From assembly GCA_000004695.1 (NCBI GenBank), contig CM000151.3, forward strand, positions 576,001-640,000: a stretch of DNA of 64,000 nucleotides, in the 5' to 3' direction. This stretch comes from Dictyostelium discoideum (Eukaryota). Position 1 is the stretch's first letter; each line of letters starts with the position of its first letter. Position numbers and translations under genes: made by a program. This document shows positions 18,169 to 54,566 of this stretch, piece by piece. A model generated the notes under the pieces. That model had not been told where the DNA came from and did not search any database. It was given only the letters and a program-made list of their open reading frames with translations.

Positions 18169-18297
18169 ATTTTTAAATGGATTTGAAATTGAATATGAAT
18201 TTATTTATCACAAATTCGAAAATTGTCAAACCCTTTATTATATTGAAACTAGGGGAGCAATGGTGATAAATAAAACGTTACCCGATTATGCATCAAT
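18169..18297 (+). CDS. Paralog C, exon 3.
   Basis: AG acceptor at 18167-18168 and GTAAGT donor at 18298. The preceding intron contains an (AAT)n tract of about 20 units. Confidence 0.45.
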
Positions 18298-18394
18298 GTA
18301 AGTTTTTGATTTTATTTTTTATTTTTTGTTTTTTTTATTTTTTTATTAAATTAATAATATGTAATATATATTTTATAAATGTAAAAATTATTAG

Positions 18395-21179
18395 AAATAT
18401 TGATTGTAAAGGATTAGAAGGTACAGAATTTAAACTATCTTATATTAGCTCAAAAACACATAGTTTCAATATATATGGAGGGAACGTAAACTTTATAACT
18501 GATGTTCCAAAGCCAACATTTTTTCAAAATTTACGTTTAAAAACAAAAAACATACCAGATTTAAAAAAAATTGTATTTGAAAATTTAATTATAAATATTG
18601 ATAAAGATTTCAATACCAGTTCATTATCAGCGTATTATAATACAATTGGAGCGAAATCGACTTCACTATTAAATGATGATAGAAATAATGGACCAAATTT
18701 ACCAAGTGAATTTTTAGGTGATAGATGGGTTTCAAATGATAAATATAGGGACAATTTAGATGTGAATGGTTTTTTAGCTCCAATTAATAATGAGCAAATT
18801 GATTTAACAGAATTGAAGTATTCATTATTAGATTTTAGAAAAGCAGGTCAATTATTCAACATTCAACAAAATTCAAAAAATGTATTCCCAATTAAAACTG
18901 GAAACAGTACAACATACTTGAAATTCCATAATGGAAATATTTCTCAAATTTACCCACTTTCCCAATTTGGAAAAGCTTCATTTATCTCTGTAGTAAATTC
19001 AAGTATTACTGGTGATTTAGGCCCATATGAGCCAAATAATGGATTTCCTACAAGACTTTATGATTTTACTAATAATGCTATAACTGGAACAATTGATCAA
19101 TCATGGTGTAACTCTGTATTGATAGTTAAAAACAATAGGATGAATGGTACAATTCCATCCTGTTTTACATGTTATTTTGATTTTCCAATAATGCTAGTAG
19201 ATAATCCAAGTGCCAGTACTATTTATGAAGCATTTCAAGGAAATAGCTTTGATAATTTAAATACAAATATTAAATGTACAACTTTTGCTCCACAAATTGA
19301 AAAAATTCGAGATAAGGCTCTACATATTTTTGGTAATGATATTGGTTTCGATAGTACTTTCTATAAAATAGATGATATTGGAATATGTAGTTCCTATAAT
19401 ACTATCGAATTTGGTAAAAGCTATGAATGTATAAGTAATAATTATTCATTTAAAGATTTAAAATATATTAAATTTAATTTTAAATATCCATTTGATAAGG
19501 ATTATTATTTCCCATTAATTAAAAGATCACCAATTATTAGCTCTGTACATTTTTTAAATAATAACAATTTACAAGTAAATGGTTCTTATTTTTCAAGTTA
19601 TTTAGGTCATGTTTCTCAAACTATTACTATTTCAAATTTAATATTTGAAATTTTAGATTCAAGTGATTTCTTTACAATTCAAGCAACTCCAATTCAAACA
19701 ATTCCAATTGAAAAACTTGAATACCCTGAAAATACAAATACTTTTGATTTATTAACTTTAAATACAAATTCAAAGATTACAAGAGTTTACATTAATCCAT
19801 CTTCAATTAATGATAAAATATGTAAAAATGATTGTACTGATAATGATCATGGTATTTGTAATTTATATTTAGGTGTTTGTGTTTGTTTAAATGATTTTAT
19901 TGGTGATGATTGTTCGAATTCAAAATTTTTCATTACATCAGTTCAACCATCAACAACAAATGGTGGTGAAGCTATTTTCTTTGGTTCATTTTTAGAATCA
20001 ATCAATACTATTTCATTAACAATTGGTGGAATAGATTGTCCAATTACATTCAATTCATCAGATACAATTAAATGTACAGCACAACCTGGTAATGGTATTA
20101 AAACTGTAATTTTAAAACAAAATGATAAAATATTCACTGGTATTGGCATTTATAAATATATTGAATTATCAATACCATGTCCAAATAAATGTTCAAATAA
20201 TGGTATTTGTAATTCAACAACTGGAATTTGTAAATGTAATAATGGATATACTTTATATGATTGTAGCGCATTATTAAATACAGATAATGGTTCAGGTGGT
20301 AATAATAACAATGGCGGTACAAATACAACAATTGACCCAGGTACAGGTTCAACAAATATTACAGATTCTCAAACTCACTTTCAAATTTATTTAAAATCAT
20401 TAATTGAAGTAGATATTAATAATAATGAAGTTAAATCTTATTCATTATTAAAGAATTGGATATTTAATAAAACTGAAAATGAAATTGAACCAAATAAATA
20501 TATATTAAAACAACAATTAGTAAATAATACTGCTCCAAATTCAAATGGATGTATAATTACATCAACAATTGAAGAAATTAAAGATAAAAATGGTAAAGAA
20601 TTTACATTTGCGGGTACATCATTCGTTGTTTCAAGTGGTTCAATTAAATTTACAATTTCAATTGCAAATTATACATATCAAAGTAATTTAAATACTTTAA
20701 AATTAGAATTAATGTCATCAGTTGATAAAATCGATAAAATTAATAATTGTAATTCAAAAGACACAGAAATCGATACAACCAATGTAAATGATATATCAAC
20801 ATTTAATTATATCAAAATTTCAAAAAATAATAAAATTTTCTCTGGTAGATTCATAAATAAAGTATTATCTGATGGAAGATCAACATTTTTTACAACAAGC
20901 GCAAGAAACGATTCAAATTCAATTATTGTATCATTAAATTTACCACATTGTATAAACGAATGTTTAATTGATCCAGATTTTTCAGTTTTACTTTCAAATG
21001 ATTTCAAATCTGAATGTGGTGATTCATCTCGAAAATGGTTTTTACCTGTTGTTATAGTTGTACCTGTTTTGGGCGCAACTATACTTTTTATAGTTTTCTT
21101 TATACTCTATAAGAAAAGTACTACACTTAAAATTATGTTGCACGCTGCAAAATTAAAAAAATTAAATACCAATAAATAA
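18395..21179 (+). CDS. Paralog C, large exon 4. LRR-like repeats, IPT/TIG, EGF, TM; tgr-like surface protein.
   Basis: AG acceptor at 18393-18394, in frame with ORF 18288..21179. The ORF track's N-terminus runs through intron sequence. Confidence 0.65.
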
Positions 21180-21227: not shown

Positions 21228-21472
21228 TTAAACTTTATTTAAAGTATAACCTGTTCTAACGACATTTGGTGTGTAAGCACGTGAACAAGTCTTACACCAC
21301 CAACGAAATTTATCATGTTTCCATGCAGGTGCCAACCCACATCTAGTACAATTTGGTATTTGTTGTAATGAGTCAGATTGATTATTTAAACAATTTTGGT
21401 TATTTTGATTTGTAATAATGGTATTTTGTGAATAATTATTATTATTAGTAGTATTATTATTAATATTATTAT

Positions 21473-21509
<37 letters not shown>

Positions 21510-21510
21510 A

Positions 21511-21595
<85 letters not shown>

Positions 21596-22494
21596 TATTA
21601 TTATTATTATGAATATTTAAAAGGGTGTGATTATTACCATTATTATTTGTTTGATTGTGGGCTCTATTTGAATTCATTTGGGCGATATTGAATTCACTAT
21701 CGGTAGCTCGTTTATATATTCTATTTTCGATTGGTATGAATGCTTTATTACAATTACGACAGTAGTAACGTTTTTTATCATGTTTCCAACTGGCAACTCT
21801 ATTACAATATGCACAATTTGGTAATTCATTTACTACATTTGATGTTTGGGAATTTGGTGACGTTGGTGTTGGAGATGTTGGTGTTGAATTATCACTATTA
21901 CTATTATTATCATTATCACTATGATTACTATTATTAACAATATTATTATTGTTATTATTAATATTGTTACTATTACTATTATGGTTTATTTTATTATTTT
22001 TATTATTATTTACAAGGTTATTAAAACCAGAAGAAGCTAATTTAATTTCACCATTTTTATTTAAAGTACTTCTGGTAATTATTGACTCTAAGACAATTTT
22101 TGCATCTTTCATTGAGATATTGGATGGTAATGTACCTCCTAATCTTCTAATTTCGGAACAAATTTCTGGAAATGTTAATTTACAAATATCTTCAACTTTA
22201 AAGTTGGAAATTTCAGGAACTGATTGATTATTATTTTTATTATTAATTGGATTTGGATTTGGATTTGGGTTTGGATTTGGTGTATTATTACTACTGTTAT
22301 TATTGTTATTATTAATGGTATTTATATTTTGATTATTTGAAAAATCATTATTAATTGTATTGTTAAAATTATTATTATTATTATTATTATTATTGTTATT
22401 AGTATTATTATTATTATTATTATTTTGGTGATTATTTTTATTAATATTTTGGTTGTAATTGGCATTCATATTTTTGAAATTACTATTAATAATT

Positions 22495-22529
<35 letters not shown>

Positions 22530-22957
22530 TAAATTATTTATTGAAATCGATTGTTGATTGTATTGAGTTTTTGGTTGAATAATATTTTGAATTTGTGGTT
22601 GATTAGATTTGGAGTGTAGTGGTGGTGAAAATTGTGAATTGTTTACAAGTTGAGGTGAACTTAATGGTTGAAGTGATTGTGGAAGAGGTAGAGGTGGTGG
22701 TGAATGTTGTTTATGATAATAAACATTCTGATAATGATATAATGGAGGACTATATGAATGTTGTAATTGATGTTGTTGTTGAATTTCTGGTGATTGAGGA
22801 ATTTGTTGTAAATTATTATTATTATTATCAATTTCATCAATATGGTGGTTATTATGATGATAATTATGATGATGATGATGATGTTGTTGATTATGATTAT
22901 GATGATGATGATTATGATGATATTGATGATGGTTATATGTATAAATTGGATGTTGAT

Positions 22958-22989
<32 letters not shown>

Positions 22990-23171
22990 CTATTAATGTT
23001 AATTTGATTACGAAGGTCGTTAGATTTATTCAAATTTTTATTATTGTTAAAAACCCAATTTGAATTATCGTCGTCATCGCCAATATCATTATTATCATTT
23101 AATAAAAAATCAATTCTTTGTTTTTTAAATGATCTATTATAACTATTAATATCACTTAAAAGCTCCTCCAT
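21228..23171 (-). CDS. N/H/Q-rich nuclear-type protein with two CX2CX14CX2C zinc-ribbon-like motifs.
   Basis: Single 647-aa ORF. The two motifs are CAYCNRVASWKHDKKRYYCRNC and CTRCGLAPAWKHDKFRWWCKTC. It also has long poly-N, poly-H and PNPNPN tracts. Confidence 0.6.
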
Positions 23172-24191
23172 TTTTTTTTTTTTTATTTATTTTATTTATT
23201 TGCAAAAAAATTTATTTATTTTATTTATTTTTATTTTATTTATTTATATTTTTTTTTTTTTTTTGTATTTAAATTTTATTTTTATTATTTTTATTAATCG
23301 TTTTTGATTGAGTTTAAAAATAAAACAAAATAAAAATAAAACAGAGATTGATTTATAAAAAAGGAAATTTTTATTTTATTTTTTTTTTTTTTTTTTTTTT
23401 TTGTTTACAAAATCGATTTTTAAAAATAATTATAAAAGAAGAAAGTGGGGGAAGTAAAAAAAAAAAAAAAAAATAAAAAAAAATTTGTTTAATGATTTTG
23501 AAAAAATAAAAATTATACAAAAAGGAACGGATTATAGTGTAGTTTAATATTTGTATTGGAAGACAATAATTAAAAAAAAAATATAATAATTTAATTAAAA
23601 AAAAATGATAATAATAATAATAATGATAATAACCACACAAACACAAAATTGCTCTACAATTTATTTTATATATCTGTATATTATTTTTATAAATTAATAT
23701 CTATATATAAATTTATATTATTTGTTCTATTTATTGCTATTAAATATTTATTTTAAATTTTATTTTTATTTTTAACTTTTATTTATTTATTTTTTTTTTT
23801 TTTTTTTTTTTTAATTTATAAATAAAATTTTTTTGGATAGCAAATTGTTTAAAAAAAAAATATATAAAAAAATATAAAAATAATAGTATGGCAACTATTA
23901 ATTTAATAAATGGTGGTGGTGGATGGTGGTAGTGTGAGTTGAAAAGGGGGGGGTGTGTGAATGTCAATAATGGAAAAAGAAATGTGATTCCAAAATTTTG
24001 TTGTTTTTATGTTGTTATTGTTGCTGTTTTGAAATGAGAGTAAAAATTTACTTTTATATTAATAGTTTATTTTTATATCAAATATATTTGGTTGAGCAAT
24101 AAAAAAAAAATAAAATAAAATAAAAATAATTAAAATAAAATATTGAAGAGAAAGAATGAGGGGTATAGTCTAGTTTTTTAATAGCATCCAA

Positions 24192-24242
<51 letters not shown>

Positions 24243-24752
24243 AAAAAAAAATAAAATATTGTATGTGAGGGTGTTGGTTTGTGTCAATAAAAAAAAAATT
24301 TGTGGTTGACATCTCACACAACAACTACATGCTAACATAAAAATATGGCACCATTTAAAATAATAATATTAAAAAAAAAAAATAAAAAAATAATAAAAAT
24401 AAAATAAAATTTGGTAAGTGCAATAGAGTGGGCTTGGAAGAAGGTGTAATTTTTTTTTTTTTTTTTTTTGAGTGGTTTCGAAATTTGGGGTTGGTTGAGT
24501 GTTGGTTATATATTAAATGGGTGTGTTTTTATTTTTTTTTTCTTTTTTTTTTTTTTTTTTTTTGTTTTTTGGTAGATATATGCTCGTTCTAAATTTTTAT
24601 AGTAATTTTCAAATGTGTGGGTTGTAGAAGGTATTATTAACACAGTTGGTATTATTAAAGATAAAAATAATTTTTATTTAACTCGACCACCCCACAATCT
24701 ACTACCATTGTGAATTGTTCTTTTCTATTATTATAAATTTTTTTTTATTAAT

Positions 24753-24783
24753 GTGGGGTCTTAATTTTAAAATGCCTCCCCAC
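24753..24783 (+). ncRNA. Candidate very small pol III-type RNA: 6-bp GC stem hairpin plus T10, preceded by a DUSE-like motif.
   Basis: GTGGGG-N19-CCCCAC (24753-24783) is followed by T10 (24784-24793). CCCACAA is at 24691-24697, 62 nt upstream. Confidence 0.25.
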
Positions 24784-25250
24784 TTTTTTTTTTTATCTCA
24801 ATTATATCTAATTTTAATTTCGATCACACCTCTCTGGGGTTAAAAAAAAAAAAAAATAGAAAAAAAAAAAAAAAAAAAAAAATCAATAAAAAAAAAAAAA
24901 AAAAAAAAAAAAATCAAAAACCAAAAATAAAAAAAAAAAAATAAAAACAAAAACACCCATTTTATGTAAAAAATTAATAAAATTGTAAAAATAGGATATT
25001 TATTCCCAAATTAATACACATTTTTTTTTTTTTAATATTTTATTTTTATTATTTAAAATTTTTTTTTTTTTTTTTTTTTTTAGATTTTGAACATTATTAA
25101 ATAATAATAATAATAATTATACTATTTTTTTTTTGTGCTTTTGAATTGGAGAAAAAAGAAAAAAAAAAAAAAAAAACCTATTAATAAAATATTCGAGATG
25201 TGATTTTTTTAAGAAAAAAAAAAAAACCAAAAATAAAAAATAAAGGAAAA

Positions 25251-26458
25251 TTAAAAATAACTAACTAATAATAAAAATTTTAATACATACAATACGAAAG
25301 TACCGGATTTAGCCTTCACTGATCCAGTTGAAGAAGATTTTTTCTTTGTTCCTTGGAAATCGGTATTGAAAAAGTTTTGTTGTTGATTTGGATTATTTGA
25401 ATTTGTTTGCTGTATAGTTGAAACTTGTGAATAATCAAATGAGACAAATTGTTGTTGTTGTTGTTGTGGTTGTTGTGGTTGTTGGGATGGTTGAATTGGT
25501 TGTTGTTGAGATGGTTGTTGTTGTAATGTTTGTTTAGATTGTTTTTTAGAAACAACGCCGCTAGTTGTTGTAGTTATAGTAGTTGATGATGATGATGATG
25601 ATGCTAATGATTGAGTTTGTTGTTGAATTTGTTGAGGTATTGATTGTATTTGAGATTTATTAGATTGAGTTGATGTATTTAATTGTGGCGATGGTTGTTG
25701 TGGTTGAGATAATGTTGATGTTGTTGTTGTTGTTGCTGTTGCTGATGATGCTGGTTGTTGTTGTAATTGTTGTGAAACTGGTTTAAAAGAATCAGCAGAT
25801 TGTTCATTATTAATCCAACCAATTTCTTTCAAGAATGAAAAAGTATCAGTGACAGAAGCATTTTCATCTTTTTTAGATTTTGGTGGATTATTAGTTGAAT
25901 CTAATAAAGATGATGGTGAAGTTGATAGTGAAGTAGTTGCAGAAATTGATGAATTTTCTTTTAACTTTTTCTTTTCTTTATTTCTTCTTCTATTCATATT
26001 TGATAATTGATAAATTTCTTGCATACTCTTTGGAACTTGATTATTATTTAAATTTGAACTACTTGTATTTGCAGTGGTGGTCGTGGTGGTTGTAGTTGTT
26101 GAATTAGAAGTTGATGTTGAATCATTTGAATGTTTAGAATCTTTTTCGTCATCACTTTCATCATCAATATCTTCATCCTCCTCATCATCTTCGTCATCAT
26201 CTTTATTATTATTATTATTGGTACTTTCATCATCGTCATCTTCTTCGTCATCATCATCATCGTCGTCGTCGTCATCACTTTCCTCATCACCATTTGAAGC
26301 CCCTGTTCCACCTCCTCCACCACCTGTATTACCTGATCTTCTTGAAGATTTTGAAGATTTTGAAGATTTATCATCATCATCATAATCCATTTCATCATTA
26401 TCATCATTTCCACTTACACCACCTGTAATTTCACTATCTTGATTATTATCACCATCGC

Positions 26459-26491
<33 letters not shown>

Positions 26492-28279
26492 CACTTTGTT
26501 GTTGTTGTTGATCAATTGATTTCAATTGTTGAGTTGGTTTAAAAACTGGAGCATAAGTTGATTGTTCAAAAGAAGAAGCAACCATTGAAGCTATTCTTTT
26601 GGATCTCTTTCTATCTGGATGATTTTCATCATCACCACTACTTGAAATATCGAATAAACTATTGGTAGAGATTGAAGTACTTGAGTGATTACTTTGATTT
26701 ACACTTGAAACACAAGTTGATTTCTTACCAATTGAAGTTAACGATTGAAAAGCTGGTTGTAAATTATTAACCATTGCAACATGAGTCGTTGCTGATTGTC
26801 CAAAATTACCATTACCCGTTGCATTATCAACATCACTTGATAACCATTTTGCTGTTTTATATAATTGATCTGTTGTTAAAACTGGACTATTTGAATTATG
26901 ATTTTTAATATTTGGTACTGGTGATAATGATCTTTCTGTTTTAATTGGTTGTTGTTGTTGTGGTTGTTGTAGTTGTTGTTGTTGTGGTGGTGGTGGTTGT
27001 ATAATTGGTTTTATAGTTGTTGCTTGTGGTACTGTTGCTGCTGTAACTTGTTGTTGTTGTTGAATTTGTTGTTGTTGAATTTGTTGTTGTTTTTGAGTAT
27101 AAAAAACATTTGATTGATTATTTAAAAGACTATGTAATTGTGGAATAAAAGATGGTTGTTTTGAAGGATCTTCAATTCTAGCTTTTAAAATCTCTTGAAT
27201 TAATTGATGAGAATGTTGTTTAATTGATGGTGGAATTGGTGAACAAAGAGTTAATAATTCTTGTACTGAAGTTGGTTGTCTTTCAACGATTGTTAACATC
27301 ATTTGATTTGGTAAGATATAACGAACACTTTCATCTTCATCACGTGCTAAACCTTCTCTCCAATGATAGAGTACTTTCAATACATTCAATTGAGTTGGAC
27401 TATATTGTAAATTCAATTTCTTTGCGAAATTAATATGGCTATTATCATCCAAAATATCCTTTTCATAACGAAGTAATGATAATTCTCTTGAACGTCTTAA
27501 AACTTCCAATAATAAATGATTATTTAATTGGGTGGTGGTACTGGTACTGGTGTTGGTACTGGTACCACTACTACCTAAATTTTTATTACCTTTTGAAATT
27601 AATTCATTACGTAAACGATCATAAATATATAATAAGTAATGAGTATCTTCACGAGCGTATTTAATCATTTCTTCAGGTAATTTTCTAATTCTCCAATCTG
27701 CTAATTGGTATTTTTTATTTGCATCGATTGCACAATAAAACTTTAAGAGGAAAGCTAGTGAAGCGGAAGGGTATTCAAGTATTCTTGAGGCTTGACCAGT
27801 GTCAAACATATTTACAATGTACACACCGAAATCCCTTTGCAACCATTTTATATCGCTATCACTACCATGTAAAACCTTGACAATCGATGGATTTGTGAAA
27901 ACCTGATTCAACATGTGAATGTGAGATCTTAATAGCAGGGTATCAATTAAGAAATCCTCTGAACGTGTTGAAATTTGCATTAAACATGTGAACCCTTGAT
28001 AAGTTCTATAACTATGATGCTCCAAATCGATGGCAATCTCTTGACAATGAATTAACTTTTCAACCAATTCCTCCAATTGTCTAACAGTTTCAACCCATGT
28101 AAATGGTGTCTCATCTAATCCTCTTGCTAAAATCTCTTTACATTGTTGAGTTTGTTGTTCTGTATATTTAAAATTATTAATTTCATATTCATATGGATGT
28201 GGAAATATTATACCCTCTTGTTCTTTACTTCTAATAATTTTACCAAATGAAATTTCTTTTGGTATTGATTTTTTAAATA
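25251..28279 (-). CDS. exosc10: Exosome 3'-5' exoribonuclease Rrp6/EXOSC10, exon 3. DEDD exonuclease and HRDC region plus a long low-complexity C-terminus.
   Basis: IAIDLEHHSYRTYQGFTCLMQISTRSEDFLIDTL and HGSDSDIKWLQRDFGVYIVNMFDT match Rrp6 Exo motifs. AG acceptor is at 28280-28281 on the minus strand. Confidence 0.8.
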
Positions 28280-31078: not shown

Positions 31079-31490
31079 TCTCTTTACCTAAAAAAATTCA
31101 ATTATTATTATTATTTTATTATTATTATTAATAAAAAAAAAATAAAAAAATGAAAAAAAAAAAATAAAAAAAGGAATGAAAAATTTTTAATTTTTTAAAA
31201 TTAAAAGAAATAATAATAATTAATTTAAAAAAAAAAAAAAATTATATTATTAGATAAAAGAATATTAAAATTGTCTTTTTTGAATTTATTTTTTTATTTT
31301 TTTATTAATTTTTTTTTTATTAATTTTTTTTTTTTTAACCGTTCATTATTTTTACCTACATTTGAGTTTAAAACTTTTGAAAGGTTTGAAATCATCTTTT
31401 TAAGTATATATTTTATATTTTGGTGTGTGTATGATTTTTAAACTCTTTAATAAAAAAAAAAAAAATTTTAAATTTTAAAACAAAAATTTT

Positions 31491-32311: not shown

Positions 32312-33331
32312 TTAAACTTGAAATTCAACATAAGTTAAAGCATTACCTTCACGTGGTTCAATCATTGGTTCTAAATAATTCCATTCATTCTTTTCAATAT
32401 TATAACATTGATTTTCAGCTAAAACCTCAGAAAAGTAACCACCAATGACATAGATATTACCAGTACCATCAAAGATTGCAGAATTGCGAACATCTATTGG
32501 CTTTTTCATATCGGAAAGACTTTCCCATTCCCAAGTTTCAATATTCATACGTTCTAGGTTATTTGAAATTTTTCTACCACCAAAACTACCACCCATAACG
32601 TAGATATGATTATTTCCATCGTAAACAGCACCAGGTCCATCACGTTGTTTTCTCATTTTACCAACCTTTACCCATTTATCGGATTGAATATCATATTGTT
32701 CAATGATATCCAAAGCTTTTCCATTGAAACCACCAATAGCATAAATAGAGCCACCATTACGTGGATCATAGATAGCTGATAGATCGGATCTTGGTACTTT
32801 CATTTTCTTTAGACTTTGATACTCTTGAGTGAGAATATCAAAACGATCGATTTGATTAGAGAACCAAGTTTGATCCTTACCACCAACGATATAGATATAA
32901 CGTTGACCATCGAAAACTGTGGCATGTCTCGATCTCTCTCTTGGCATTTCTTTACCCATTACCCATTTATTATCATGAATACAATAACGTTCTACGGATT
33001 TCTCGAAACCACCTGGACATTCACCACCAAAAACATATATATATTGTTTACCATCGAAAACCGCTGAAATTCTATTACGATGGAAATTCATTGGTGATAC
33101 ATAATTCCATTTATTTTGTTGTATTGAATAACATTCAACCGATTGTTTCAATTGTCCACCAATTGCATAAATAAATCTAATTGTAAATTTAATTGTTAAA
33201 TTTGATTTTCTAATTAAATTTAATGATGTTGAATTAATAATATTAATAATTTCTTCATTATTTGATTCAATTAATTTATTTTGTATTGGTGAATTTGGCG
33301 CACTTATATTATTATTATTATTATTTTTATT

Positions 33332-33411
<80 letters not shown>

Positions 33412-34476
33412 GAGATGATGATGATGATGATGATGATGATAAATTTAATTTATTTTCAACTAAATCTAAACACCAAGTTGAACTTCTTTCAATATTTGAA
33501 ACTTGAATTGAATTTTGAATTGATTGTAATAAAGGTTTCTTTTTATTCATTAATGAATTAATTTGTTGAATTAATCCTTTTGAATTTGGAGATGAGGTTT
33601 TTGAAGAAGATGATGAAGAAGATGATGATGATATTGAAGAAGTGGATGAAGAAGTGGATGAAGAAGTGGAAGTTATAGAAGATGATGAAGAAGAAGAATG
33701 TAGCGCAGGTGATGTTGGATTTGAATTGCCAAGTTCTAAATATTCCATTTGATCATTAATTATTTGTTGTTGATGATTATTACTATTATTATTGCTATTA
33801 ATAATAATATTATTACTATAATGACCACGTTTATTTTGTTGTATTTGTTTTTGTTCATTCTTTTTATTTTGTTTATGTTCAAATTCAATATCAGATAATA
33901 ATTGATTAATTAAATTTCTTTTAATTTCCAAAGAGTTTTTAAATTCATTGAAATCTTGATCAACTTGATTTAAAAGTTGTTGAGTGATTGTATTGATTTT
34001 CATTTTAATTTTTTGTTTTTGAGTATTCAAATCGGGTTGACATTGAATGGCTTGTTCAGAGATCTCCCTTTGAATGTGTAATTTATTACGTACTTGATTT
34101 AGATATTGTTTGGTTGCCTTATAATCTTGTTTAGTTTCATTTAATATATCGTTTAATGATTTTAAGGCATGTCCATAGTGTTGATTATCGATATATATAC
34201 ATTTTGCACAAACACCACTACAACATTCAAAACAATAATATTGTATCTCTGAATTATGTAATAAACATTCATTATTTGTAATGAAAAATATATTATCATT
34301 AATATATGTTTGTGATATAATTAAATTATTATTATTAGTAATATTATTATTATTACTATTATTGCTATTATTAATTAGGCTATTATTATTTATAAAAATA
34401 TTATTATTGCTATTTGATTTATATATATGATGGCTATTATTAATATTATTATTATTATTATTATTATTGCTGCCAA

Positions 34477-34516
<40 letters not shown>

Positions 34517-34589
34517 ATTATTAGTATTATTATTATTATTATTATTACAACTGTACAAAAATTGATTATGATTATTATTTATATTTTCA

Positions 34590-34620
<31 letters not shown>

Positions 34621-35935
34621 TAATATTATTATTATTATTATTATTAATATGATTGAAATTATTTGACCCCATTATTACTGGACTACTTGGGACACTAGAT
34701 GAGGTTGAACTATTGGTTGGTCTTATATGTGGTGACTGTTGTACGTTTACATTATATACATTGGTAGGTCCATTTACAAGTGGACTAAATCCACCAAAAA
34801 TATTTGGTGAATGATTTGAAAATGATGGATGTTGCTCGTTATTATTATTTTTACTATAATATTGTTGAATTGGTGGAGGTGGTTGAATTGGAGATTGAGT
34901 TTGAAAAGTTGATTGTGGTTGAGGTTGTGGTTGTGATTGTGGTTGAACCTGTGGTTGTGGTTGTTGGGGTTGATGATGATTAAGATGTTGATGATGATTA
35001 CTATTATTATTAATATTATTATTATATTTATTTAAAGTTGAAACACTTGTTGTTTCATCGTCCGTTAGTAATTGCATCATCGAAGGTGAAGATAAAGGAT
35101 TTAATGGCAATGGTGGTACCATTAATGGTGAAAATTGACTACTCCCACCTCCTCCACTATTAGATGATGGATGAATTCTTGGTGAGAATTGGCCACTACC
35201 ATTTTGAGGGGGTAGTGCACTTCTTGGTGATAATTGTGAAGATAATAAATATGGTGATGGTGCAGGTGACCCGATGGGGGAAGGAGATGTATGATGAAGA
35301 AGTGGTGATTGATGTACGGTACCACCTGCATTTCCCCTTGGTGATGATGGATTATTGTTATTATTAATATTGCCCAAATTCAAATTACTTAAATTTGTAA
35401 TACCATTCAAGCTATTTAATAGTGGTGGGGGAGGTTTCATTCCATTCATATTTGGACTTCCTATTGGCGCTGTATTACCACCACTACTACCATTACCATT
35501 ACCATTACCATTACCATTACCACTACCATTACCATTAATAATACCATTATTATTGTTATTTATATTATTATTTATACCGCCATTGTTATTTTTATTAATA
35601 TTGATATTATTATTGTTATTATTATTATTATTATTATAATGACCATTTCCATTTACATTTACAACGATACCGCCAATACTACCATTTAATTGATAATTTT
35701 TAAATTCGTTTGCATATCTTGTAAGTTGCTCATTATTCCATGCTTCATGAGAACTAGTTTTATCACCACATATTCTGCAATGGTAAAGCATTTGTTTTGA
35801 TCTTGAAAAACTGTTGAGTTCTAGGCAATCACTACAAAAACTGTGATTACATCTCAAAGTTTTTGGATGAGTAAATAATTTTTTACAAATAAAGCATTGT
35901 GGGTAAAATTGATATCCATTGCTATCAACAAACAT
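32312..35935 (-). CDS. RBCC-Kelch protein: N-terminal RING, B-box and coiled coil, long low-complexity linker, C-terminal six-blade Kelch propeller.
   Basis: RING is CFICKKLFTHPKTLRCNHSFCSDCL...CRICGDKT. B-box is CLLHNSEIQYYCFECCSGVCAKCIYIDNQHYGH. Six Kelch-type repeats: IYAIGG, IYVFGG, IYIVGG, IYAIGG, IYVMGG, IYVIGG, each followed by a W. Confidence 0.75.
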
Positions 35936-39617: not shown

Positions 39618-40101
39618 TATTGGTAAAAATGTTACATTATTAATACAAAGAAAAGATGAACCATATTGTTTTAGAATTCAAAAGAATAAAGTATATTATG
39701 TTAGTGAAGAATTAATGAAAAGATCACAAAATATACCAAGAGAAGGATTATGTAGTTTAGGAACATGTTTTGGTCGTTTTACAAAAACAGGAAAATTTAA
39801 ATTAAATATCACTTGTTTAGATTACTTAGCACAATATGCAAAATATAAAGTTTGGGTTAAACCATCATCAGAAATGTCTTGGATGTATGGTAATAATTTA
39901 TTAAAAGCTGGTTTAGGTAGAATTACAGAAGATACACCTGCAAATCAAGGTGTTGTTTTATTCTCAATGAATGATGTACCAATTGGTTTCGGTGTTACCT
40001 CAAAATCAACTCATGAATGTAGAAAATTAGATCCACAAGCTTTAGTAGTTTATCATTATGGTGATGTTGGTGAATATTTGAGAGATGAAGATATTATGTA
40101 A
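39618..40101 (+). CDS. nip7: Nip7, exon 2 (PUA-domain part).
   Basis: [30 protein letters not shown]...[37 protein letters not shown]...[26 protein letters not shown]. Confidence 0.8.
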
Positions 40102-41076: not shown

Positions 41077-41173
41077 CTAATTTAATAATTTTGGTTATAT
41101 ATATAAATACAAATTAATTAATTATTATTATTATTATTATAATTATTTTTTCAATTTAAAATTATTTATTTAC

Positions 41174-41613
41174 CAAGAATAGCCAATATAATGATTATCT
41201 AAATATGATTCAATCATTTTTATTTTATTATTATTTTTATTATTATTTTTTAAATTAATTATTTTTGAAATATAAATTTCAAAAAATAATAATAAATTTG
41301 TAAAAATTATTAAAATAATATTACATTTAAAGTAGTAGTAGGAGCCTTTAATAATTTCAATTTTACTTGTATTCCATATTGATATAGAATTTAATATTAA
41401 ATGAATTATATTTGAATGTGAAAATGTTGAAGAAATTACTCTCCAATATTGTCCTCCAATTATTTCCTTATAATTAAATGATACCTTTTCTGTACTAATA
41501 TCATAAGCGAAATGATTAAACCATATTAAAACATTTATAATTAAAATTATTGATGTTATTGGACATTGTTTAATTTCAATAAAAAATTCATTATTTAATA
41601 AAACTTCATTCAT
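41174..41613 (-). CDS. Rhomboid-like intramembrane protein, exon 1.
   Basis: YWRVISSTFSHSNIIHLILNSISIW matches the rhomboid TM2 region. It ends in ...HYIGYS. GTAAAT donor at 41173 on the minus strand. Confidence 0.5.
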
Positions 41614-42266: not shown

Positions 42267-42339
42267 GCCCGTTTAGCAAAGTTGGAATTGCGGCAGCCTT
42301 CTAAGCTGCAGGTCGTGGGATCGAGACCCACAATGGGTG
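42267..42339 (+). tRNA. tRNA-Arg, anticodon UCU.
   Basis: Cloverleaf folds by hand. Acceptor GCCCGTT/AATGGGT, D stem GCAA/TTGC, anticodon stem GCAGC/GCTGC, loop CTTCTAA, T stem GTGGG/CCCAC, discriminator G. A T9 terminator follows directly. Confidence 0.8.
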
Positions 42340-46206: not shown

Positions 46207-49200
46207 TTAATCAAGTGATTTTAAATTACCAAATTCATCAAAACTATAAATTAATAATTGACAAGATTCTAATGGTACCATTAAAGTTAAATTATTATTA
46301 ATTGTATTATTGCCATTATTATTGTTATTATTATTACTATTACTATCACCACTGACAGAGGTTGAAGGTTTTTGATAAGATTCATCACCACCCCATAAAT
46401 AGATATCAACGATTTTATTACTATTTGTAAAACCAGATAAATCTCTAATATCAAAGACATGAACAATCTCTAAATTTAACATTTCTCTAATAACAATTTG
46501 ATAACCACCAGCAGTTAATAAATATCTAATACCATTTTGAGATTTAGTGATTAACATTTTAACAATGATTGGTTGAACATCATTTTGTACACTTTGAATT
46601 AAATCACCATTGATTGAATATCTATAAAGTACATTATTATTACTAATTGTTGTATTTGATGATGATAATGAAGATGAAGATGATTCATCATCTCTTGTTG
46701 TTGTTGTTGTTGTTGCTGAGGAATTATAATCTGATTGAACAATTGGTAAAATTGAATTTGAATAAATGAAAAATGTTGAAGAATCATTTTCTAATATGAT
46801 TGAATGAATTGGTAATTTATTTGGATGTTGAATTGATTTAAAGAAAGTACCTTTTTTTAGAGAGTGAACATTTACTTTACCATCTTTACTAGCTGTTAAA
46901 CAAATGTCATTTGCTTTATTGATTGCAATACAAGTGATACCAAAATTATGACCACGTAAAATATGAATTGGTTTAATTGAATGATGATCGGATTGAGATT
47001 GCTCATATTCCCAAACTATGGCAGTACTATCGTCACTACCAGTTACAATCACCTTTTGTTCAATGAGTACACCACCAACACCAAGTCTACCACATTGATA
47101 CTCGTCATAGACAATACAAGTGATTGGTGATTTATGATTGATTGAGCCAGTAACCAATTTTGAACCTTCACCATGAACGATATGTAAAGTGTAATCACAT
47201 TTACCACTTGTTAATAATACTCTACTGTTACTTGGAATTTGACAGAATGGTTTACCAATTACAGATCTTAAACCAGATGATAGAGTGATTGGTTGATTTG
47301 CATTCGATGGTAATGGTTGTACACTTTGTGATACCAAGTTGGTTGAAGTTTGAGTTGAAATGGTTGAAGTCGATTCTAGATAACGATAATATTGTAAATC
47401 ATTATTTGCCTCACCAATTAGTAATACCCTATCGCCCAATAGACTATTAGCACTCGAACTATTACCAACGACACCACTAATCAAAGATGAGCCAATGCCA
47501 CCCGAATAATAATCACTCTTTGTTGGACAATAAACAAAGATGCATAATGGTGAGAAAGGTAAAGATATCAATTGTAAAGGTTTCAATCTTTTGAAAATAT
47601 CCAATTTATTTGAATAACGTTGTGGTAACGGATCACGTTGTGGATGTGGCTGATTTGGGAATAGCTGAGATGGAGTAACACCGAAATTATTGATTTGTAC
47701 TCTTGTAGCCTCTCTAAGTATCGGATCATTCATTGCACCAATATCAACACTACCTTCATAAGTTAGATGATAGAATACATTATTTGCCTTTACAGCTTCT
47801 TTACCACGTTGTTTATAACCAAATATTAAATCAATCCAATGATGAAGATTCATTGAAACATATTCCGACTCCAATGCCATACGATTTAACATTATGAAAT
47901 GGTAGGGTGACTGTTGTGCCCAGGGGGGTAGGGACACGTTATCCAATGCTTTACCATTTTGCTTGACACCAAATTCAACCCGATTTCTATTGATTAAAAA
48001 CTCTGGTAAATAAAAGAACTCTGGTGTCAACTCTTTGACATCTGATGAACTATTTAAACAATTTCTCCAACAATCAATGATTGAATCAAACATACGATCG
48101 GCATGATCGAAATGGCCACTTTGTAATTTTATGAAATGACTTGTGAACGGTTCACAACGCATCAAGAAAAACATGACACTACCACTTGAACTATAATGTG
48201 TACCATACATAAATGCTGGTATCTCTGCAGGACATTGAGTCCAACGTTCCATAAACAATTCCAATCTAGTTGGATTCAAAGCACCAATTGGTTTACTTAA
48301 ATCCCTATAAATTGATTGATCATTGATATTCAATGTATTTGAACTATTATCACCAATGATCCAAGGAAAAACCGGATACTGATTAAGATCATTATAAGTT
48401 CTACCTGCAATTGTATTCAATGTCATTAGATATTCAAAATTTGATATCTCTCTTCTCTTCCATCTTGCAGTTGGATTTAAATATTTAATTACAACTTGTT
48501 GTGGTGTCATTGGTTGATTAGAATTTGAATTGTTGGTGCTATTGTTGGCACCTATAGTACCATCAAAAAAACTAACATTATTTGTATTGATTTTAAATAT
48601 AATATCATTTGAACCATAAAGATTACCAATTAATTTTAAGATTTGAGCACAAATTGAACCTCTTGGAAAGTTTACTAATAATGATTTTCTATCGATGAAA
48701 AAGAATTCTAAAGCAGTTGGTGATAATAAATAACGTCTACATTGTACACCGATAATTTTCTTTATTTCATATTCTCTATCTTTTAAATATTTTGGTGGTA
48801 TACAATCATCTTCTTGAATTAAATTTGATGTCAATATTAATCTATCTGTAAAAATTTGTAATTTAATTCTAATTACTGACATTGGTTTAATAATTTCACC
48901 TTGTGTACTAAATTCTAATTTAATATTTTTATTATTATTATTATTATTATTACTATTATTATTACTATTACCATTATTATTATTACTAGATGGTGATGAT
49001 GATGATGATGATGTTAATGTTGACTTTTTTGGATTTAATAAATTTAATTGTTCAAATAAATTAAAATTTGAATTAACTCTATCATTATTTAATGTTGATG
49101 TTGTTGTTGTTGTTGTTGTTGTTGTAATAATATTTGTACCACCACCACCTGAATTAGTTACTGTTTGAATATTACTAAAACTTGAACTTGGTGATGATGA

Positions 49201-49272
49201 CGATGATAATGATGAAGTTGATGATGTATTTAATAATGTTTGATTAGCTGATAGTGATGTTGATCTTTTAAA

Positions 49273-49309
<37 letters not shown>

Positions 49310-49601
49310 GCTTGCTGTTGTTGGTGTTGATTTTGTGGAGTTTTTTGAGGTTTCATTATTTTTTCATCAACTAAACACCACTCAGATTCATGTTCATCAT
49401 CTAAAATTATATTATTACCATCATCATCTTTTTCTTCAATTTCAAAACCAACTAAAGTATCATTACCTAAAGAATCTGTTGAAGTTGTATGTTTTGTAAC
49501 TTTTCTCAAAATTGGATTATTCTTTAACTGTTCAACAACACTACTACTACTACCAGCATTACTAATTGAAGGTGAAGGTGGTAATTGTAATGATTGTTGA
49601 G

Positions 49602-49645
<44 letters not shown>

Positions 49646-50293
49646 TGTTGTTGTTGTTCTAATCTTAATTGTTGTTGTTGTTCCATTCTTAATTGTTGTT
49701 GACGTAATATCTTTTGATTTGATAAAGAAGCTTCAGGATGATCAGTACCATCATAATCTTTTTTCATTAAAATATTAACACGATTTGAATTTGAAATATT
49801 ATAAAGTCTCCAAATTGTTTTTTCATTATGATTTGGTTCCATTTGAAACCAAGGTGAAGACTCTTGTTGAGTTAATTGTTTAAATTTAGTATTCCATAAA
49901 TCTATAATGTATTGATTATATTGTTGAATATATTCTTGAAAATCCGATTTCCTTTGAATCTCTTGAAATTCATATTTCTGTGAGGTTGATATTGATTTAG
50001 TTAAAAGTTTATTGATTTTATAGGTGATTACATTTTGATGTTTTTGATAATTTGAATTGATTGCTTCCAAAACTTTATTTCTACGTGTCATTGTAAATGC
50101 TGATTGTAAATGAGCATTCTCATAGTGATCTTTAATTTCATGTAATTTATCTAATAATGTTATTTTTGGTAAAAGTTTATCATTAAAATATTTTAAAAAT
50201 TCTGGATGATTAATTAAATCTGTTTTTTCATTCAATGATGAAATACTATGTACAGAGAATGAAGTTTTTTCATTTTCATTATTATTTAAATTT

Positions 50294-50328
<35 letters not shown>

Positions 50329-51842
50329 ATTATTTCCACTATTATTATTTCCACTATTATTATTATTATTACCACCACCAACAACACTATTAATAATTGG
50401 TGATAAAATATTTGAAGGTGGATTAATAAAATTATCAATTAAATCACCATAAGTTTTTAATAATTGTTTTAATAATGAAATTATTATTGATTGAGTATTA
50501 ATTATAATTTTATCTTCATTATTTGTTTTATGACGACGAATGATTGTAATTAATGAACAGACTATCCACATTACATGTTTAACTTGTTCTTTTTGATCAC
50601 GTTCTGATGCTAAAATCGTTTGAATACGAATTGAATTCTTTGAGATTATATGATCCATATCCTCACTAATCATTGGTAAACCCCAAACTCTAATACTAAA
50701 TTGACGTTCTTCATCATCTGCATTCTCATTGGTATGATCGTGTTTACTCTGATGATAAGATTCTCTCTCTCCGTAGAAACATGATTCTGCCTCTTGAAAA
50801 ATACATAAACATAGTCTATAGATAGTATGAATTGAACTCTTTGCCTTTGCCGAACCACTAGTTACATCGATCGATGGCAAATCAATTGTACCACTATTAT
50901 TTGCCAATGTCATAATGTAAGGTGAGAATTGCATACTGCCATAGGGTGATTGATAGTTTGAATGATTACTTGAGAATGGATTCAAACTACTACTTGCAGT
51001 TGGTTTAACGACATTTGCTTGAATACGAATGGTTTGAATCGATTGACTTATATCGAAAATATCCAATAACTTTGCTACAACTCCAAAATCTTCCCATTGA
51101 GATTGAGTATTACGATGTGCTAAAATGTTCATAGTATGAGAGAATACGAAATCTTCAATGATCGATACAAGATTCACATAATTCTTCAAAAGAATTCCAC
51201 CAGTGGTTGGATCATGATTCGATGATTTCAAACCACGTTCTAAATTTAATAAACATTCATAAAAAATTCTTCTCTCTAATGGTACACCATTTGGTAGAAT
51301 AGAAAATATCCATGCCTCTGTTTCTTCTATAAATTTCCAACCATCTTTTTTATTAATACAATCAAATAACAATACTTTCATTATACCTGTTAAAATTTCC
51401 TTTATACCTGATTGATAGGCTCTAATTGATAATTGTTCCTTTGTTTGACTTCTATGATCTGATATTATATTTTGTTGTTGTTGTTGATATGATGATGATG
51501 ATAATGGTGGTGGTGGTGGTGGTGATGGTGACATTGATTTAGTTGAAGTTAATAAAGGTGAAATAGGTGGTGACCATGGTGGTGATGAAGTATTTGATCT
51601 AGGTTGTGGCCATAATGATAATAACCAATGTTGCCAATTTTCACTATCCAATATACCAGCCCTCATTTGTGGTAAATGTTTAATACACAATAAAATTTCA
51701 TTCAATATCTTTTGTTGTAATGCAAGTGGTGCTCTAATTGCTAATCTACAAATTGTTTCCAATGCTGCTATATTAATTATTCTTTTTTCTTTTGAATCTT
51801 TATCTTTATTATTACTATCTATTTTATCTTTATTATTATTAC

Positions 51843-51875
<33 letters not shown>

Positions 51876-52600
51876 TACCACCCATTATATTAACACTTGA
51901 AATCGAATCAGCTAATAAAGTTTCACTACCTAATAATTCTAATAATGGTGAATTTGGAGTATCAGCAATTGATGGTGTAATTTCATCAACAACAATCTCT
52001 GATAAACCACGATACATTAATTCAGTCATTTCAAATTCCATCAATTGATCAGTGATAAAGTATAAAACATCTGTTAAAGTATTCTTTAATTTCAATGACC
52101 TTCTAACATTACCAGATGATGCCATTGATAATCCTTCTGAACCACCCATATATTTACCAATGATTTTTATAACTAATACTTGAACTTGTTCATTATTATG
52201 TTTTAATAATCCTAATAATGATTTTATATCACCTGATGATTCAAAACTATTTAAAAATCCTTTAATTGTATCATAATTTTGAAATTTTTCATCACCACCA
52301 ATATTAATATTATTATTATTACTATTACTATTATTATTATTATTGTTATTATTACTATTATTATTGTTATTTACAGGTAAAAATAAATTTGATAATAAAA
52401 TCATTAAAGATTCTTTTATTACTGTTGAATTACATTCAGAATCTTGTATAAATTTTATTATTTCTTGAATTTCTGGTACTTCTTTTTCATTTAATATTGG
52501 TTTAATTATAATTTTTATAATGTCAAATATATATGATATAATTTCTTTTAAATCTTGATTAGATAAATGACAATTTAATCTACAATTGCCAACATTATTT

Positions 52601-52632
<32 letters not shown>

Positions 52633-52889
52633 TGCACCACTTGATTCTCCAATATTATTATTATTATTATTATTATTTGTTGATATTATTGTATTTTCAT
52701 TAATATGATAAAAATATTTTATACAATCTAATAAATAACGAACTTTAATATTCTCTCTAAAATATTGAGGATTTTGTGAAACTTTAAAAATTATTAAATT
52801 AAATAATTGAATTTGATATTCTTTTTTAATATGAACCCAAATATTAAAATTAAAAATAATTTCTTTATAAATATTTAATTTTAGTAATG
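46207..52889 (-). CDS. BEACH-domain protein (Lvs family), large 3' exon with PH-like, BEACH and WD40 regions. Whole protein is about 2,970 aa.
   Basis: BEACH core is [37 protein letters not shown]...IDLIFGYKQRGKEA, followed by WD repeats. The frame is open upstream of Met 52404 to an AG acceptor at about 52890. Confidence 0.8.
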
Positions 52890-52996
52890 CTATAAATAAT
52901 AATTTTTTTAAAAAAAAATAAAATATACATATTAGTTTTAAATATTTTTTTTTTTAAAATAAAAAATTAAAAATTTTATAAAAAAAAAAAACATAC

Positions 52997-54566
<1,570 letters not shown>

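Follow-up and report, generated by a model that had tools for sequence, protein, structure and literature searches.

[quoted passage not shown]

TRIM ligases are usually regarded as an animal family. In the window analysed here (64,000 nucleotides of Dictyostelium discoideum, contig CM000151.3, positions 576,001 to 640,000), one open reading frame sets TRIM-like modules ahead of a Kelch propeller, which raises the questions of whether it encodes a single protein, whether its N-terminal half is that of a TRIM, and what the propeller might do for it. The frame runs from 32312 to 35935 on the minus strand (as do all features below, given by window position) and encodes 1207 aa from an ATG start with no intron; the coding sequence is complete in a single exon of 1207 codons, with a TAA stop at 32312-32314. 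The start codon has an A-rich context (AAAATG) and the 3' flank is AT-rich. Both ends of the protein match the termini of the D. purpureum ortholog P0001 in alignment. The original prediction had described a 1207-aa protein joining a C3HC4 RING, a type-2 B-box, a coiled coil and a propeller of six Kelch repeats, and all of these modules were recovered from the single frame, in the order RING (residues 14-56), spacer, B-box2 (557-589), helix (594-701), disordered stretch and Kelch (~918-1207). Literature searches with a putative name in UniProt style, 'RING finger domain and kelch repeat-containing protein DDB_G0271372', and with that identifier gave no match, and no paper about the gene came up.

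Read-through of two or three genes (RING, B-box, Kelch), joined via in-frame low-complexity repeats, could also give such a frame. The public Acytostelium gene model lacks a RING, and the exact 1207-aa sequence was absent from the protein collection searched, both of which would suit this explanation. However, the 3.6 kb of AT-rich DNA contain no stop codon, and there are no internal promoter-like AT-rich gaps: GC content is a coding-like 25-27% in the DNA of the linkers, compared with 11-18% for the intergenic flanks. D. purpureum, P. violaceum, Synstelium, P0002 and P0200 each have one collinear protein of the same kind, and in Acytostelium a RING lies upstream of the truncated public model in the same frame, which is open right into the annotated protein. 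Judged from the sequence, the open frame is not a chance one, because 3.6 kb would be unexpected at ~25% GC and because seven orthologs are collinear end to end. The ortholog collinearity and the in-frame Acytostelium RING effectively refute a fused-ORF artefact, to which we give next to no probability.

The C3HC4 RING finger (residues 14-56, 35768-35896) was identified by regular expression, Pfam and its ligands in the orthologs. Its spacing is the canonical C-x2-C-x11-C-x-H-x2-C-x2-C-x15-C-x2-C, and it contains the TRIM-like signature C-N-H-S-F-C-x-x-C-L. With the isolated N-terminus, Pfam cutoffs were passed for both zf-RING_UBOX (36.3 bits, cutoff 25.2) and zf-C3HC4 (27.1 bits, cutoff 21); in the full-length scan the same families scored 24.7 and 18.2 bits, both slightly under cutoff, presumably because of the HMMER composition correction. 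None of the eight zinc ligands varies among the orthologs, and the nearest solved relatives are the RINGs of TRIM21, TRIM5, TRIM72 and TRIM2/3. The E2-contact hydrophobic positions are also kept: six of seven orthologs have I or V two residues past the first Cys, and all seven have L, V or I following the sixth. The final Cys pair reads C-R-I-C, without the usual Pro, and the residue after the last Cys (the linchpin position) is Gly here and in close relatives and K, R or S in distant orthologs. Conservation and alignment with TRIM21 further delimit a post-RING segment (residues 64-80, 35696-35746) with the pattern E-x3-N-x-Q-L-x-R-x2-N-x2-K. Its invariant residues are E64, N68, Q70, L71, R73, N76 and K79, and it aligns with the stretch following the RING of TRIM21 (chain 5olm).

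The type-2 B-box zinc finger (residues 557-589, 34169-34267) has the ligand pattern C-x2-H-x7-C-x2-C-x4-C-x2-C-x6-H-x2-H, and its ligands are invariant in six orthologs. The Pfam zf-B_box score was 25.3 bits in the full protein and 29.7 bits in the isolated region, above the cutoff of 24.1. The AlphaFold2 (AF2) model of the finger (pLDDT ~90) superposes on the B-box2 of TRIM21, TRIM5alpha and TRIM39 at 1.3-1.6 A over ~39 residues. Directly behind it, the coiled-coil region (residues 594-701, 33833-34156) was supported by AF2, periodicity, profile alignment and Foldseek. These ~108 residues form two helices (AF2 pLDDT 90-95), 594-631 and 636-701, interrupted at C-Q-P-D. They are amphipathic, with a periodicity of 3.5-3.67 residues (p 0.001-0.005 vs shuffles), so that a long amphipathic helix follows the B-box as in TRIM coiled coils. 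The B-box-coiled-coil model, built from six sequences only and with pTM 0.28, had TRIM5alpha structures as its top Foldseek matches and KAP1 and TRIM72 also among the best folds, at weak E-values (1e-2, none <= 1e-3). An amphipathic helix with a Trp (residues 787-827, QQINSL..KK, W821, E827; 33455-33577) was delimited between this region and the propeller by conservation and AF2. Q791, I792, N793, S794, K799, I806, W821 and E827 are invariant in four orthologs, W821 even in six. AF2 predicted a helix at 787-813 (pLDDT 57-73; periodicity p = 0.0035), and by analogy with TRIMs the segment 787-827 may be a linker helix folded back against the coiled coil.

The C-terminal propeller (residues 906-1207, blades from ~918; 32315-33220) was assigned by Pfam, AF2 and Foldseek. 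Pfam matched six Kelch_1 stretches (E 1e-44), and a regular expression located six IY[AVI][IFVM]GG motifs at residues 922, 966, 1014, 1064, 1111 and 1161. No Pfam NHL family matched the protein even at E <= 10; with Kelch_1 matching throughout, an NHL identity of the repeats was rejected. The AF2 model of this region is a closed six-bladed fold of the KEAP1/KLHL type (mean pLDDT 91.4, pTM 0.86), and Foldseek matched it to KEAP1, KLHL17, KLHL2 and KLHL3 with a target TM of ~0.9 and an rmsd of ~1.7 A. Identity of the propeller among orthologs is 57-83%, and conservation is preferential in the B-C and D-A loops: identity is 72% in the substrate-face loops and 52% on the opposite face (Mann-Whitney p = 8e-4), and in the D-A loops the final four residues reach 92%, equal to the structural core. 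The Kelch motif's own structural Arg accounts for part of the D-A loop conservation.

The modules are held apart by long disordered spacers. The first (residues 91-547, 34295-35665), recognised by its composition and rich in N, S, P and G, comprises 457 aa, 75% of them N/Q/S/P/G/T/H. The second (residues 701-905, 205 aa, 70% N/Q/S/P/G/T/H) contains two stretches with pLDDT below 50, one N/S-rich (702-786, 33578-33832) and one with poly-S and a 27-residue poly-Q (828-905, 33221-33454). Runs in the linkers include that one of 27 Q and N runs of up to 12. Together they measure 662 aa, or 55% of the protein, in agreement with the more than 500 aa of low-complexity linker that had been claimed; poly-N/Q linker composition is ordinary in this genome. 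Between the last Cys of the RING and the first of the B-box there are 500 residues here and 242-466 in five orthologs (overall 242-500). The first spacer aligns poorly across orthologs except for short motifs. PPLPLNPL (residues 274-281, 35093-35116), found in the ortholog alignment, is invariant in the window protein, D. purpureum, P. violaceum and P0002, and was not found in the Synstelium and Acytostelium orthologs. SPNIFGGFSP (376-385, 34781-34810) is limited to Dictyosteliaceae, and SPVIMGS (418-424, 34664-34684) is shared by the window protein, P0002 and P0003, with a similar SPSLIGS as its Synstelium counterpart.

To follow the protein through other genomes we used domain-only profiles, as low-complexity words overwhelmed a homology search with the whole protein (8000 candidates, 4 matches). 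The best 150 HMMER matches were mostly giant multi-propeller Kelch proteins, and information came only from single stretches that span the whole profile. The same layout recurs in seven dictyostelid orthologs, representing both orders, including the long RING-to-B-box spacer; among the matches listed, none lay outside Dictyostelia. The predicted amoebozoan architecture thus holds as a conserved feature of Dictyostelia, but the combination of modules is not unique to Amoebozoa. At least three unrelated environmental lineages (P0093/P0206; P0119/P0266; P0077/P0231/P0110) encode compact proteins with the same Pfam order of RING, B-box(es), coiled coil and Kelch propeller. In contrast to the window protein, their RING-to-B-box spacing is short and canonical (~40 aa), and there are two B-boxes in P0077. 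Compared with the dictyostelid protein, their propellers come last among 185 and their RING/B-box/coiled-coil parts reach <= 12 bits, so that neither part is nearer to it than unrelated Kelch or RING proteins are. By sequence, these look like independent fusions. A viral origin of the P0093 lineage was unsupported in IMG/VR.

For comparison with TRIMs, a profile of six orthologs with the spacer excised was searched against the PDB. Its match to TRIM72 (E 5e-13) is a single stretch that takes in the RING, the B-box and the beginning of the coiled coil; it also matched KAP1 (1e-12), TRIM21 (5e-11), PML (1.6e-10) and TRIM3; the best twelve PDB matches were all TRIMs. The recognised TRIM C-terminal classes, C-I to C-XI, carry COS/FN3/SPRY, PHD-bromo, NHL, filamin, MATH, ARF, TM or none, and a C-terminal Kelch falls outside them. 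Kelch occurs 0 times in the TRIM surveys of Marin (2012) and Sardiello (2008), which agrees with the original prediction that it is unusual for TRIMs, and our literature searches on TRIM or RBCC proteins with Kelch, whether or not Dictyostelium was specified, turned up no account of the architecture. The tripartite motif that had been proposed is present as far as RING, B-box2 and coiled coil occur in order; however, a TRIM is defined by a RING 'closely followed' by a B-box (Marin, 2012), and here 500 residues intervene.

TRIM72 and TRIM21, the closest solved RING/B-box/coiled-coil proteins, share the single type-2 B-box, but they belong to vertebrate-restricted subfamilies with a PRY-SPRY C-terminus, whereas the window protein has Kelch and long disordered spacers. 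The TRIM-NHL proteins (TRIM2, TRIM3, TRIM32, TRIM71/LIN-41) resemble it in overall plan, with a six-bladed target-binding propeller coming after RING, B-box2 and coiled coil, and TRIM2 and TRIM3 are among the best RING/B-box/coiled-coil sequence matches. They differ in that their propeller is NHL and their spacer a few tens of aa, while the window protein is amoebozoan, with Kelch, a 500-aa spacer and no filamin; subfamily C (TRIM-NHL) is animal-only (Marin, 2012). Outside animals the same survey found only TRIM37-like TRIMs (subfamily A), including one MATH-less D. discoideum gene. Subfamily A likewise combines a RING and a single B-box in a non-animal eukaryote; unlike it, the window protein has no MATH/TRAF, and its RING and B-box are 500 aa apart. 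No MATH domain was matched by Pfam at E <= 10 and no TRIM37 chain was among the PDB matches to the RING/B-box, and a TRIM37-like identity was rejected on present evidence. The window gene probably differs from Marin's MATH-less TRIM37-like gene.

Whether the likeness to TRIMs reflects descent can be argued both ways. It is possible, though we doubt it, that the protein is a RING E3 whose RING and B-box, with the coiled coil, were assembled independently by domain shuffling in the dictyostelid ancestor, which would make it TRIM-like in architecture only. The spacer of 242-500 aa in every ortholog is unlike that of TRIMs, the only TRIMs recorded outside animals are of the TRIM37 type (Marin, 2012), which is not matched here, and the environmental lineages with the same four modules are unrelated to the dictyostelid protein, so the fusion has arisen repeatedly. 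Against this, the order RING, B-box2, coiled coil is identical to that of TRIMs, the alignment to TRIM72/KAP1 is collinear across the three modules at E ~1e-12 to 1e-13 with TRIMs outranking other RINGs, and the HSFC-x2-C-L signature and post-RING segment are TRIM-typical. Short zinc fingers carry little phylogenetic signal in favour of either view. An unlikely but more novel reading takes the dictyostelid protein as an ancient non-animal TRIM class, with the conserved 240-500-aa RING tether as a different mechanism of activation. The tripartite module would then, outside the TRIM37-like lineage too, have joined varied substrate-binding domains before there were animals, and either the tether could let the RINGs within one coiled-coil dimer pair or the N/Q-rich linkers could drive condensates. 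Animal TRIMs depend on higher-order assembly for their RINGs to meet.

On the strength of its architecture, we think it likely that the protein is a self-contained RING E3 ubiquitin ligase on the TRIM plan, with the Kelch propeller recognising substrate. This matches the ligase with an unusual substrate-recognition domain that had been proposed, as far as architecture goes; ligase activity itself is inferred. From family knowledge, the RING would bind an E2~ubiquitin conjugate, and the B-box2 and ~108-residue helix would build a homodimer that is elongated and probably antiparallel, like those of TRIM5alpha, TRIM25 and TRIM72. Substrate is most likely recruited by the propeller, by analogy with NHL and SPRY in animal TRIMs and with the BTB-Kelch adaptors of Cullin-3. 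The propeller may bind a short degron on the B-C/D-A loop face, as KEAP1 binds the Nrf2 ETGE, in a pocket predicted to be lined by R953/N954/R955, R1001/S1002/R1003, R1049/S1050/D1051, R1098/D1099, D1148/R1150/N1151 and R1195/E1196, and the bound protein would then be ubiquitinated. More speculatively, the ancestral 240-500-aa tether probably allows the two RINGs in a dimer to contact each other, or to reach a propeller-bound substrate, and higher-order assembly might not be required.

Not every residue of the RING is what an active ligase would lead one to expect. A linchpin Arg or Lys after the last RING Cys activates E2~Ub in many RINGs, and the Gly at this position, together with the last Cys pair without Pro, could indicate a degenerate RING that serves protein interaction, either in a dimeric scaffold with a Kelch propeller for binding, say, actin, which several Kelch proteins bind, or in an adaptor of some other ligase. 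Scaffolding or condensate behaviour is also suggested by the prion-like N/Q-rich linkers and by the Pro-rich PPLPLNPL. Yet the zinc ligands (8/8) and E2-contact hydrophobics are conserved over roughly the whole depth of Dictyostelia, distant orthologs have K or R at the linchpin position, and an Arg linchpin is missing from many active RINGs. We consider such a scaffold or adaptor quite improbable.

If the protein is indeed a ligase on the TRIM plan, it can be compared with the substrate adaptors of Cullin-3. The BTB-BACK-Kelch proteins (KEAP1, KLHL2/3/8/12/17/20) have the closest propellers by structure and, at 25-31% identity and E down to 1e-37, by sequence, and share both the six-bladed fold and the conservation of the same B-C/D-A loop face. 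Nearly all of these nearest propeller relatives have BTB and BACK, whereas neither BTB (PF00651) nor BACK (PF07707) had a Pfam match in the window protein; dimerisation would come from the B-box and coiled coil instead of BTB. As the RING is on the same chain as the propeller, we infer that Cullin-3/Rbx1 is not needed, and the two-component Cullin-3/BTB-Kelch arrangement would be collapsed into one polypeptide. A single chain could thus carry out what in animals takes Cullin-3/Rbx1 and a BTB-Kelch adaptor.

None of the parts is unusual in itself, and the advance is one of annotation, with no new principle. The protein would add a second non-animal TRIM-type RING/B-box/coiled-coil module, conserved over the full depth of Dictyostelia, to the TRIM37-like one, and its C-terminal domain, used by no recognised TRIM class, would extend the known combinations of this ligase scaffold. 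Dictyostelium is genetically tractable and offers a system for asking how a long RING-coiled-coil tether affects TRIM-type catalysis, and which degron is read by a KEAP1-like pocket in an amoeba. The orthologs are already public, labelled 'hypothetical protein' or 'RING-type domain-containing protein'. A thiolase gene neighbours the RING/Kelch gene.

The gene was a single unbroken ORF of 1207 codons in the ORF listing (window 32312..35935, -), with its start codon in an A-rich context (AAAATG), a homopolymer-rich promoter region upstream and AT-rich DNA with AATAAA motifs 3' of the stop. GC content across the very AT-rich window is 11-32% per 2-kb bin. An exact-sequence look-up of the 1207-aa protein found no entry in the protein collection.

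Pfam scanning of the full-length protein detected six Kelch_1 repeats (E 1e-39) and a zf-B_box match at 25.3 bits against a cutoff of 24.1; the isolated propeller and B-box segments gave E 1e-44 and 29.7 bits, respectively. The RING models were narrowly below cutoff when the full-length protein was scanned, but the isolated RING segment passed for both zf-RING_UBOX (36.3 vs 25.2 bits) and zf-C3HC4 (27.1 vs 21 bits). Both fingers showed textbook ligand spacing: C-x2-C-x11-C-x-H-x2-C-x2-C-x15-C-x2-C at residues 14-56 for the RING and C-x2-H-x7-C-x2-C-x4-C-x2-C-x6-H-x2-H at residues 557-589 for the B-box, which is a B-box2 because its second ligand is His. Each blade carried one IY..GG motif (residues 922, 966, 1014, 1064, 1111 and 1161), and no NHL model matched the protein, even at E <= 10. 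The RING, the B-box2 and the six-repeat propeller, with Kelch rather than NHL repeats, were therefore upheld as the original prediction had them. The N/Q/S/P-rich linkers, expected to exceed 500 aa, comprised 662 residues (91-547 and 701-905), 70-75% of them N/Q/S/P/G/T/H, including a 27-residue Q run.

The C-terminal part (residues 880-1207) was modelled from an alignment of 56 sequences, with a mean pLDDT of 91.4 and a pTM of 0.86. The model predicted a six-bladed Kelch propeller of the KEAP1/KLHL kind, and Foldseek superposed it on the Kelch domains of KEAP1, KLHL17, KLHL2 and KLHL3 and on designed six-bladed Kelch proteins (target TM ~0.9, rmsd 1.6-1.8 A, ~295 columns). A PDB sequence search agreed with the fold search (KEAP1, E 3e-37). 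The B-box/coiled-coil model (residues 540-830) was built from six sequences only. Its B-box (555-593) was confident (pLDDT ~90) and, taken alone, lay 1.3-1.6 A from the B-box2 domains of TRIM21, TRIM5alpha and TRIM39. Two long helices followed at 594-631 and 636-701 (pLDDT 90-95), then a disordered stretch and a helix of lower confidence at 787-813. All three helices had a hydrophobic periodicity of 3.5-3.67 residues, well over shuffled controls (p 0.001-0.005), and the best PDB folds for this model were the TRIM5alpha B-box-coiled-coil, KAP1 and TRIM72, with weak E-values of ~1e-2. As modelled, the long helices, their periodicity and these folds support the coiled coil that had been proposed.

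For comparison with TRIMs, the spacer between RING and B-box was excised and the joined RING, B-box and helix were searched against PDB sequences. The window sequence was collinear with the TRIM21 RING-B-box (5olm, E 7.6e-6) and TRIM72, whereas a six-ortholog dictyostelid profile gave far stronger matches, aligning with TRIM72 (E 5e-13) in one stretch of RING, B-box and the first ~60 coiled-coil residues, and also with KAP1/TRIM28 (1e-12), TRIM3 (1.4e-12), TRIM21 (5e-11) and PML (1.6e-10). The 12 best PDB matches to this profile were all TRIMs, with RNF135 13th, and no TRIM37 chains were among the PDB matches of the RING/B-box/coiled-coil part. The RING showed the TRIM-typical signature H-S-F-C-x-x-C-[LI], and the conserved post-RING segment E64..K79 aligned with the equivalent TRIM21 segment. 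However, the TRIM definition quoted in Marin 2012 (PMC3503706) has the RING 'closely followed' by the B-box(es), while the gap in the window protein is 500 residues. The same survey gives subfamily A (TRIM37-like, RING-B-box-MATH) as the sole TRIM subfamily outside animals and reports one TRIM37-like gene, without MATH, in D. discoideum; 'Kelch' has zero occurrences in it (PMC3503706).

The same collinear layout was found in D. purpureum (P0001, DICPUDRAFT_90119), Polysphondylium violaceum (P0003, CYY_006262), Synstelium polycarpum (P0005), a JGI sequence (P0002) and a further representative (P0200), as well as in Acytostelium subglobosum (P0006), where the public model has no RING. At the Acytostelium locus, an ORF beginning 357 nt upstream of this model encodes a C3HC4 RING in frame (CVTC...CLH..C..C...CPLC; DF837581.1, L003:4644-5000, upstream of SAMD00019534_049780) and runs on into the annotated protein, so the public model is truncated and starts ~119 codons too late. 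A NIP7 gene lies upstream both in Acytostelium (L003:813-1644) and in the window (NIP7/UPF0113 PUA-domain exon, 39715-40101, +), and this local synteny, kept across both dictyostelid orders, supports orthology. Since the orthologs span Dictyosteliales, Acytosteliales and Synstelium, the gene goes back to the common ancestor of Dictyostelia. Conservation of the linker motifs PPLPLNPL, SPNIFGGFSP and SPVIMGS was confined to Dictyosteliaceae. Outside Dictyostelia the dictyostelid profile score dropped from 497 to 147 bits, and the best matches were animal KLHL8, KLHL10, KEAP1 and KLHL12, aligned over the propeller only. The architecture had been put forward as amoebozoan; the layout held throughout Dictyostelia, but no ortholog was detected in other Amoebozoa within word-index sensitivity.

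Compact RING/B-box/coiled-coil/Kelch proteins were found in three environmental lineages (P0093/P0206, P0119/P0266 and P0077/P0231/P0110), which come from the metagenome contigs L001 (JGI 3300045971, 63-kb, ~50% GC), L002 (ENA ERZ27257035) and L004 (ENA ERZ27257034); no relative turned up in IMG/VR. In P0077 the RING is followed by two B-boxes, a coiled coil and six Kelch repeats. P0119 begins within its own RING and the first C-x2-C (MNCHIC...) is just upstream in frame (L004:482-574), so this gene call is N-terminally truncated. The RING-to-B-box distance in the environmental proteins is ~40 aa, a normal spacing, in contrast to 242-500 aa in all dictyostelid orthologs. Against the window propeller, their propellers scored 37-79 bits and ranked 133rd to 185th among 185. 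The RING/B-box/coiled-coil parts of these proteins scored <=12 bits. With no link between these lineages and the dictyostelid family, the fusion seems to have more than one origin. The representative library also held many giant proteins (P0157-P0302) of up to 7,663 aa with <=27 separate Kelch-propeller stretches. These outscore true full-length matches, so that weaker proteins of this architecture are masked.

The best-supported reading is that the window protein is a single-chain RING E3 with a Kelch degron receptor. The RING would recruit an E2, the B-box2 and coiled coil would form a dimeric scaffold, and the propeller would bind the degrons of substrates; the long ancestral disordered tether might allow RINGs within a dimer to pair with each other, or to get to substrate held on the propeller. 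Such a ligase is predicted to work as the TRIM-NHL and TRIM-SPRY ligases do, and to pack the role of the Cullin-3/BTB-Kelch system into a single chain. The hydrophobic E2-contact positions of the RING were conserved among orthologs. The 'linchpin' position after the last RING Cys was K, R or S in distant orthologs and Gly in the window protein and close relatives, which makes intrinsic ligase activity uncertain.

In KEAP1 and other KLHL propellers the degron-binding face consists of the B-C and D-A loops. We compared loop conservation across seven orthologs, with strands assigned from the propeller model and residues grouped by structural class. Identity to the window sequence was 72% for the B-C and D-A loops and 52% for the opposite-face A-B and C-D loops (Mann-Whitney p = 8e-4). 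Within each D-A loop, the final four residues (HRNR, ERSR, PRSD, RDGP, DVRN and REGN) reached 92% identity, equal to the structural IY..GG core (91%). One Arg per blade is the Kelch motif's own, so this signal is functional only in part. We found no description of this gene or architecture in the literature; the component parts are all well known, and databases already list the orthologs as hypothetical proteins. The dictyostelid protein is real, well conserved and a tidy experimental candidate.

The adjoining ORF encodes an acetyl-CoA acetyltransferase (thiolase) that shares a 90% cluster with the copies of D. discoideum AX4 (XP_645587.1), D. citrinum, D. firmibasis and D. dimigraforme, which places the window in the D. 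discoideum species group. The 399-aa thiolase ORF follows a short exon 1 (MISNLSKVLNSNV...) and an intron rich in A+T (window 31079-31400, -), in agreement with the 414 aa annotated for the D. discoideum protein. Upstream of the RING/Kelch gene, a 6-kb AT-rich stretch (GC 11-17%) contains a rhomboid-domain ORF fragment (41170-41613, -) and a tRNA-Arg(TCT) gene (42267-42339, +). At 46207-54551 (-), a large BEACH/PH-BEACH/WD40 (Lvs-type) gene appears to be divided among two or more ORFs (46207-52404 and 52938-54551), which are presumably exons. The ORF at 18288-21179 (+) has the ComC-type set of LRR, beta-sandwich, EGF and supersandwich domains and belongs to a family typical of Dictyostelium. 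The plus strand showed unusually strong GC skew at 22001-26000 (+0.45 then +0.36 in consecutive 2-kb bins); a 647-aa ORF with no Pfam match (21228-23171, -) overlaps this region, and an RRP6-like 3'-5' exonuclease/HRDC ORF (25251-28076) adjoins it.
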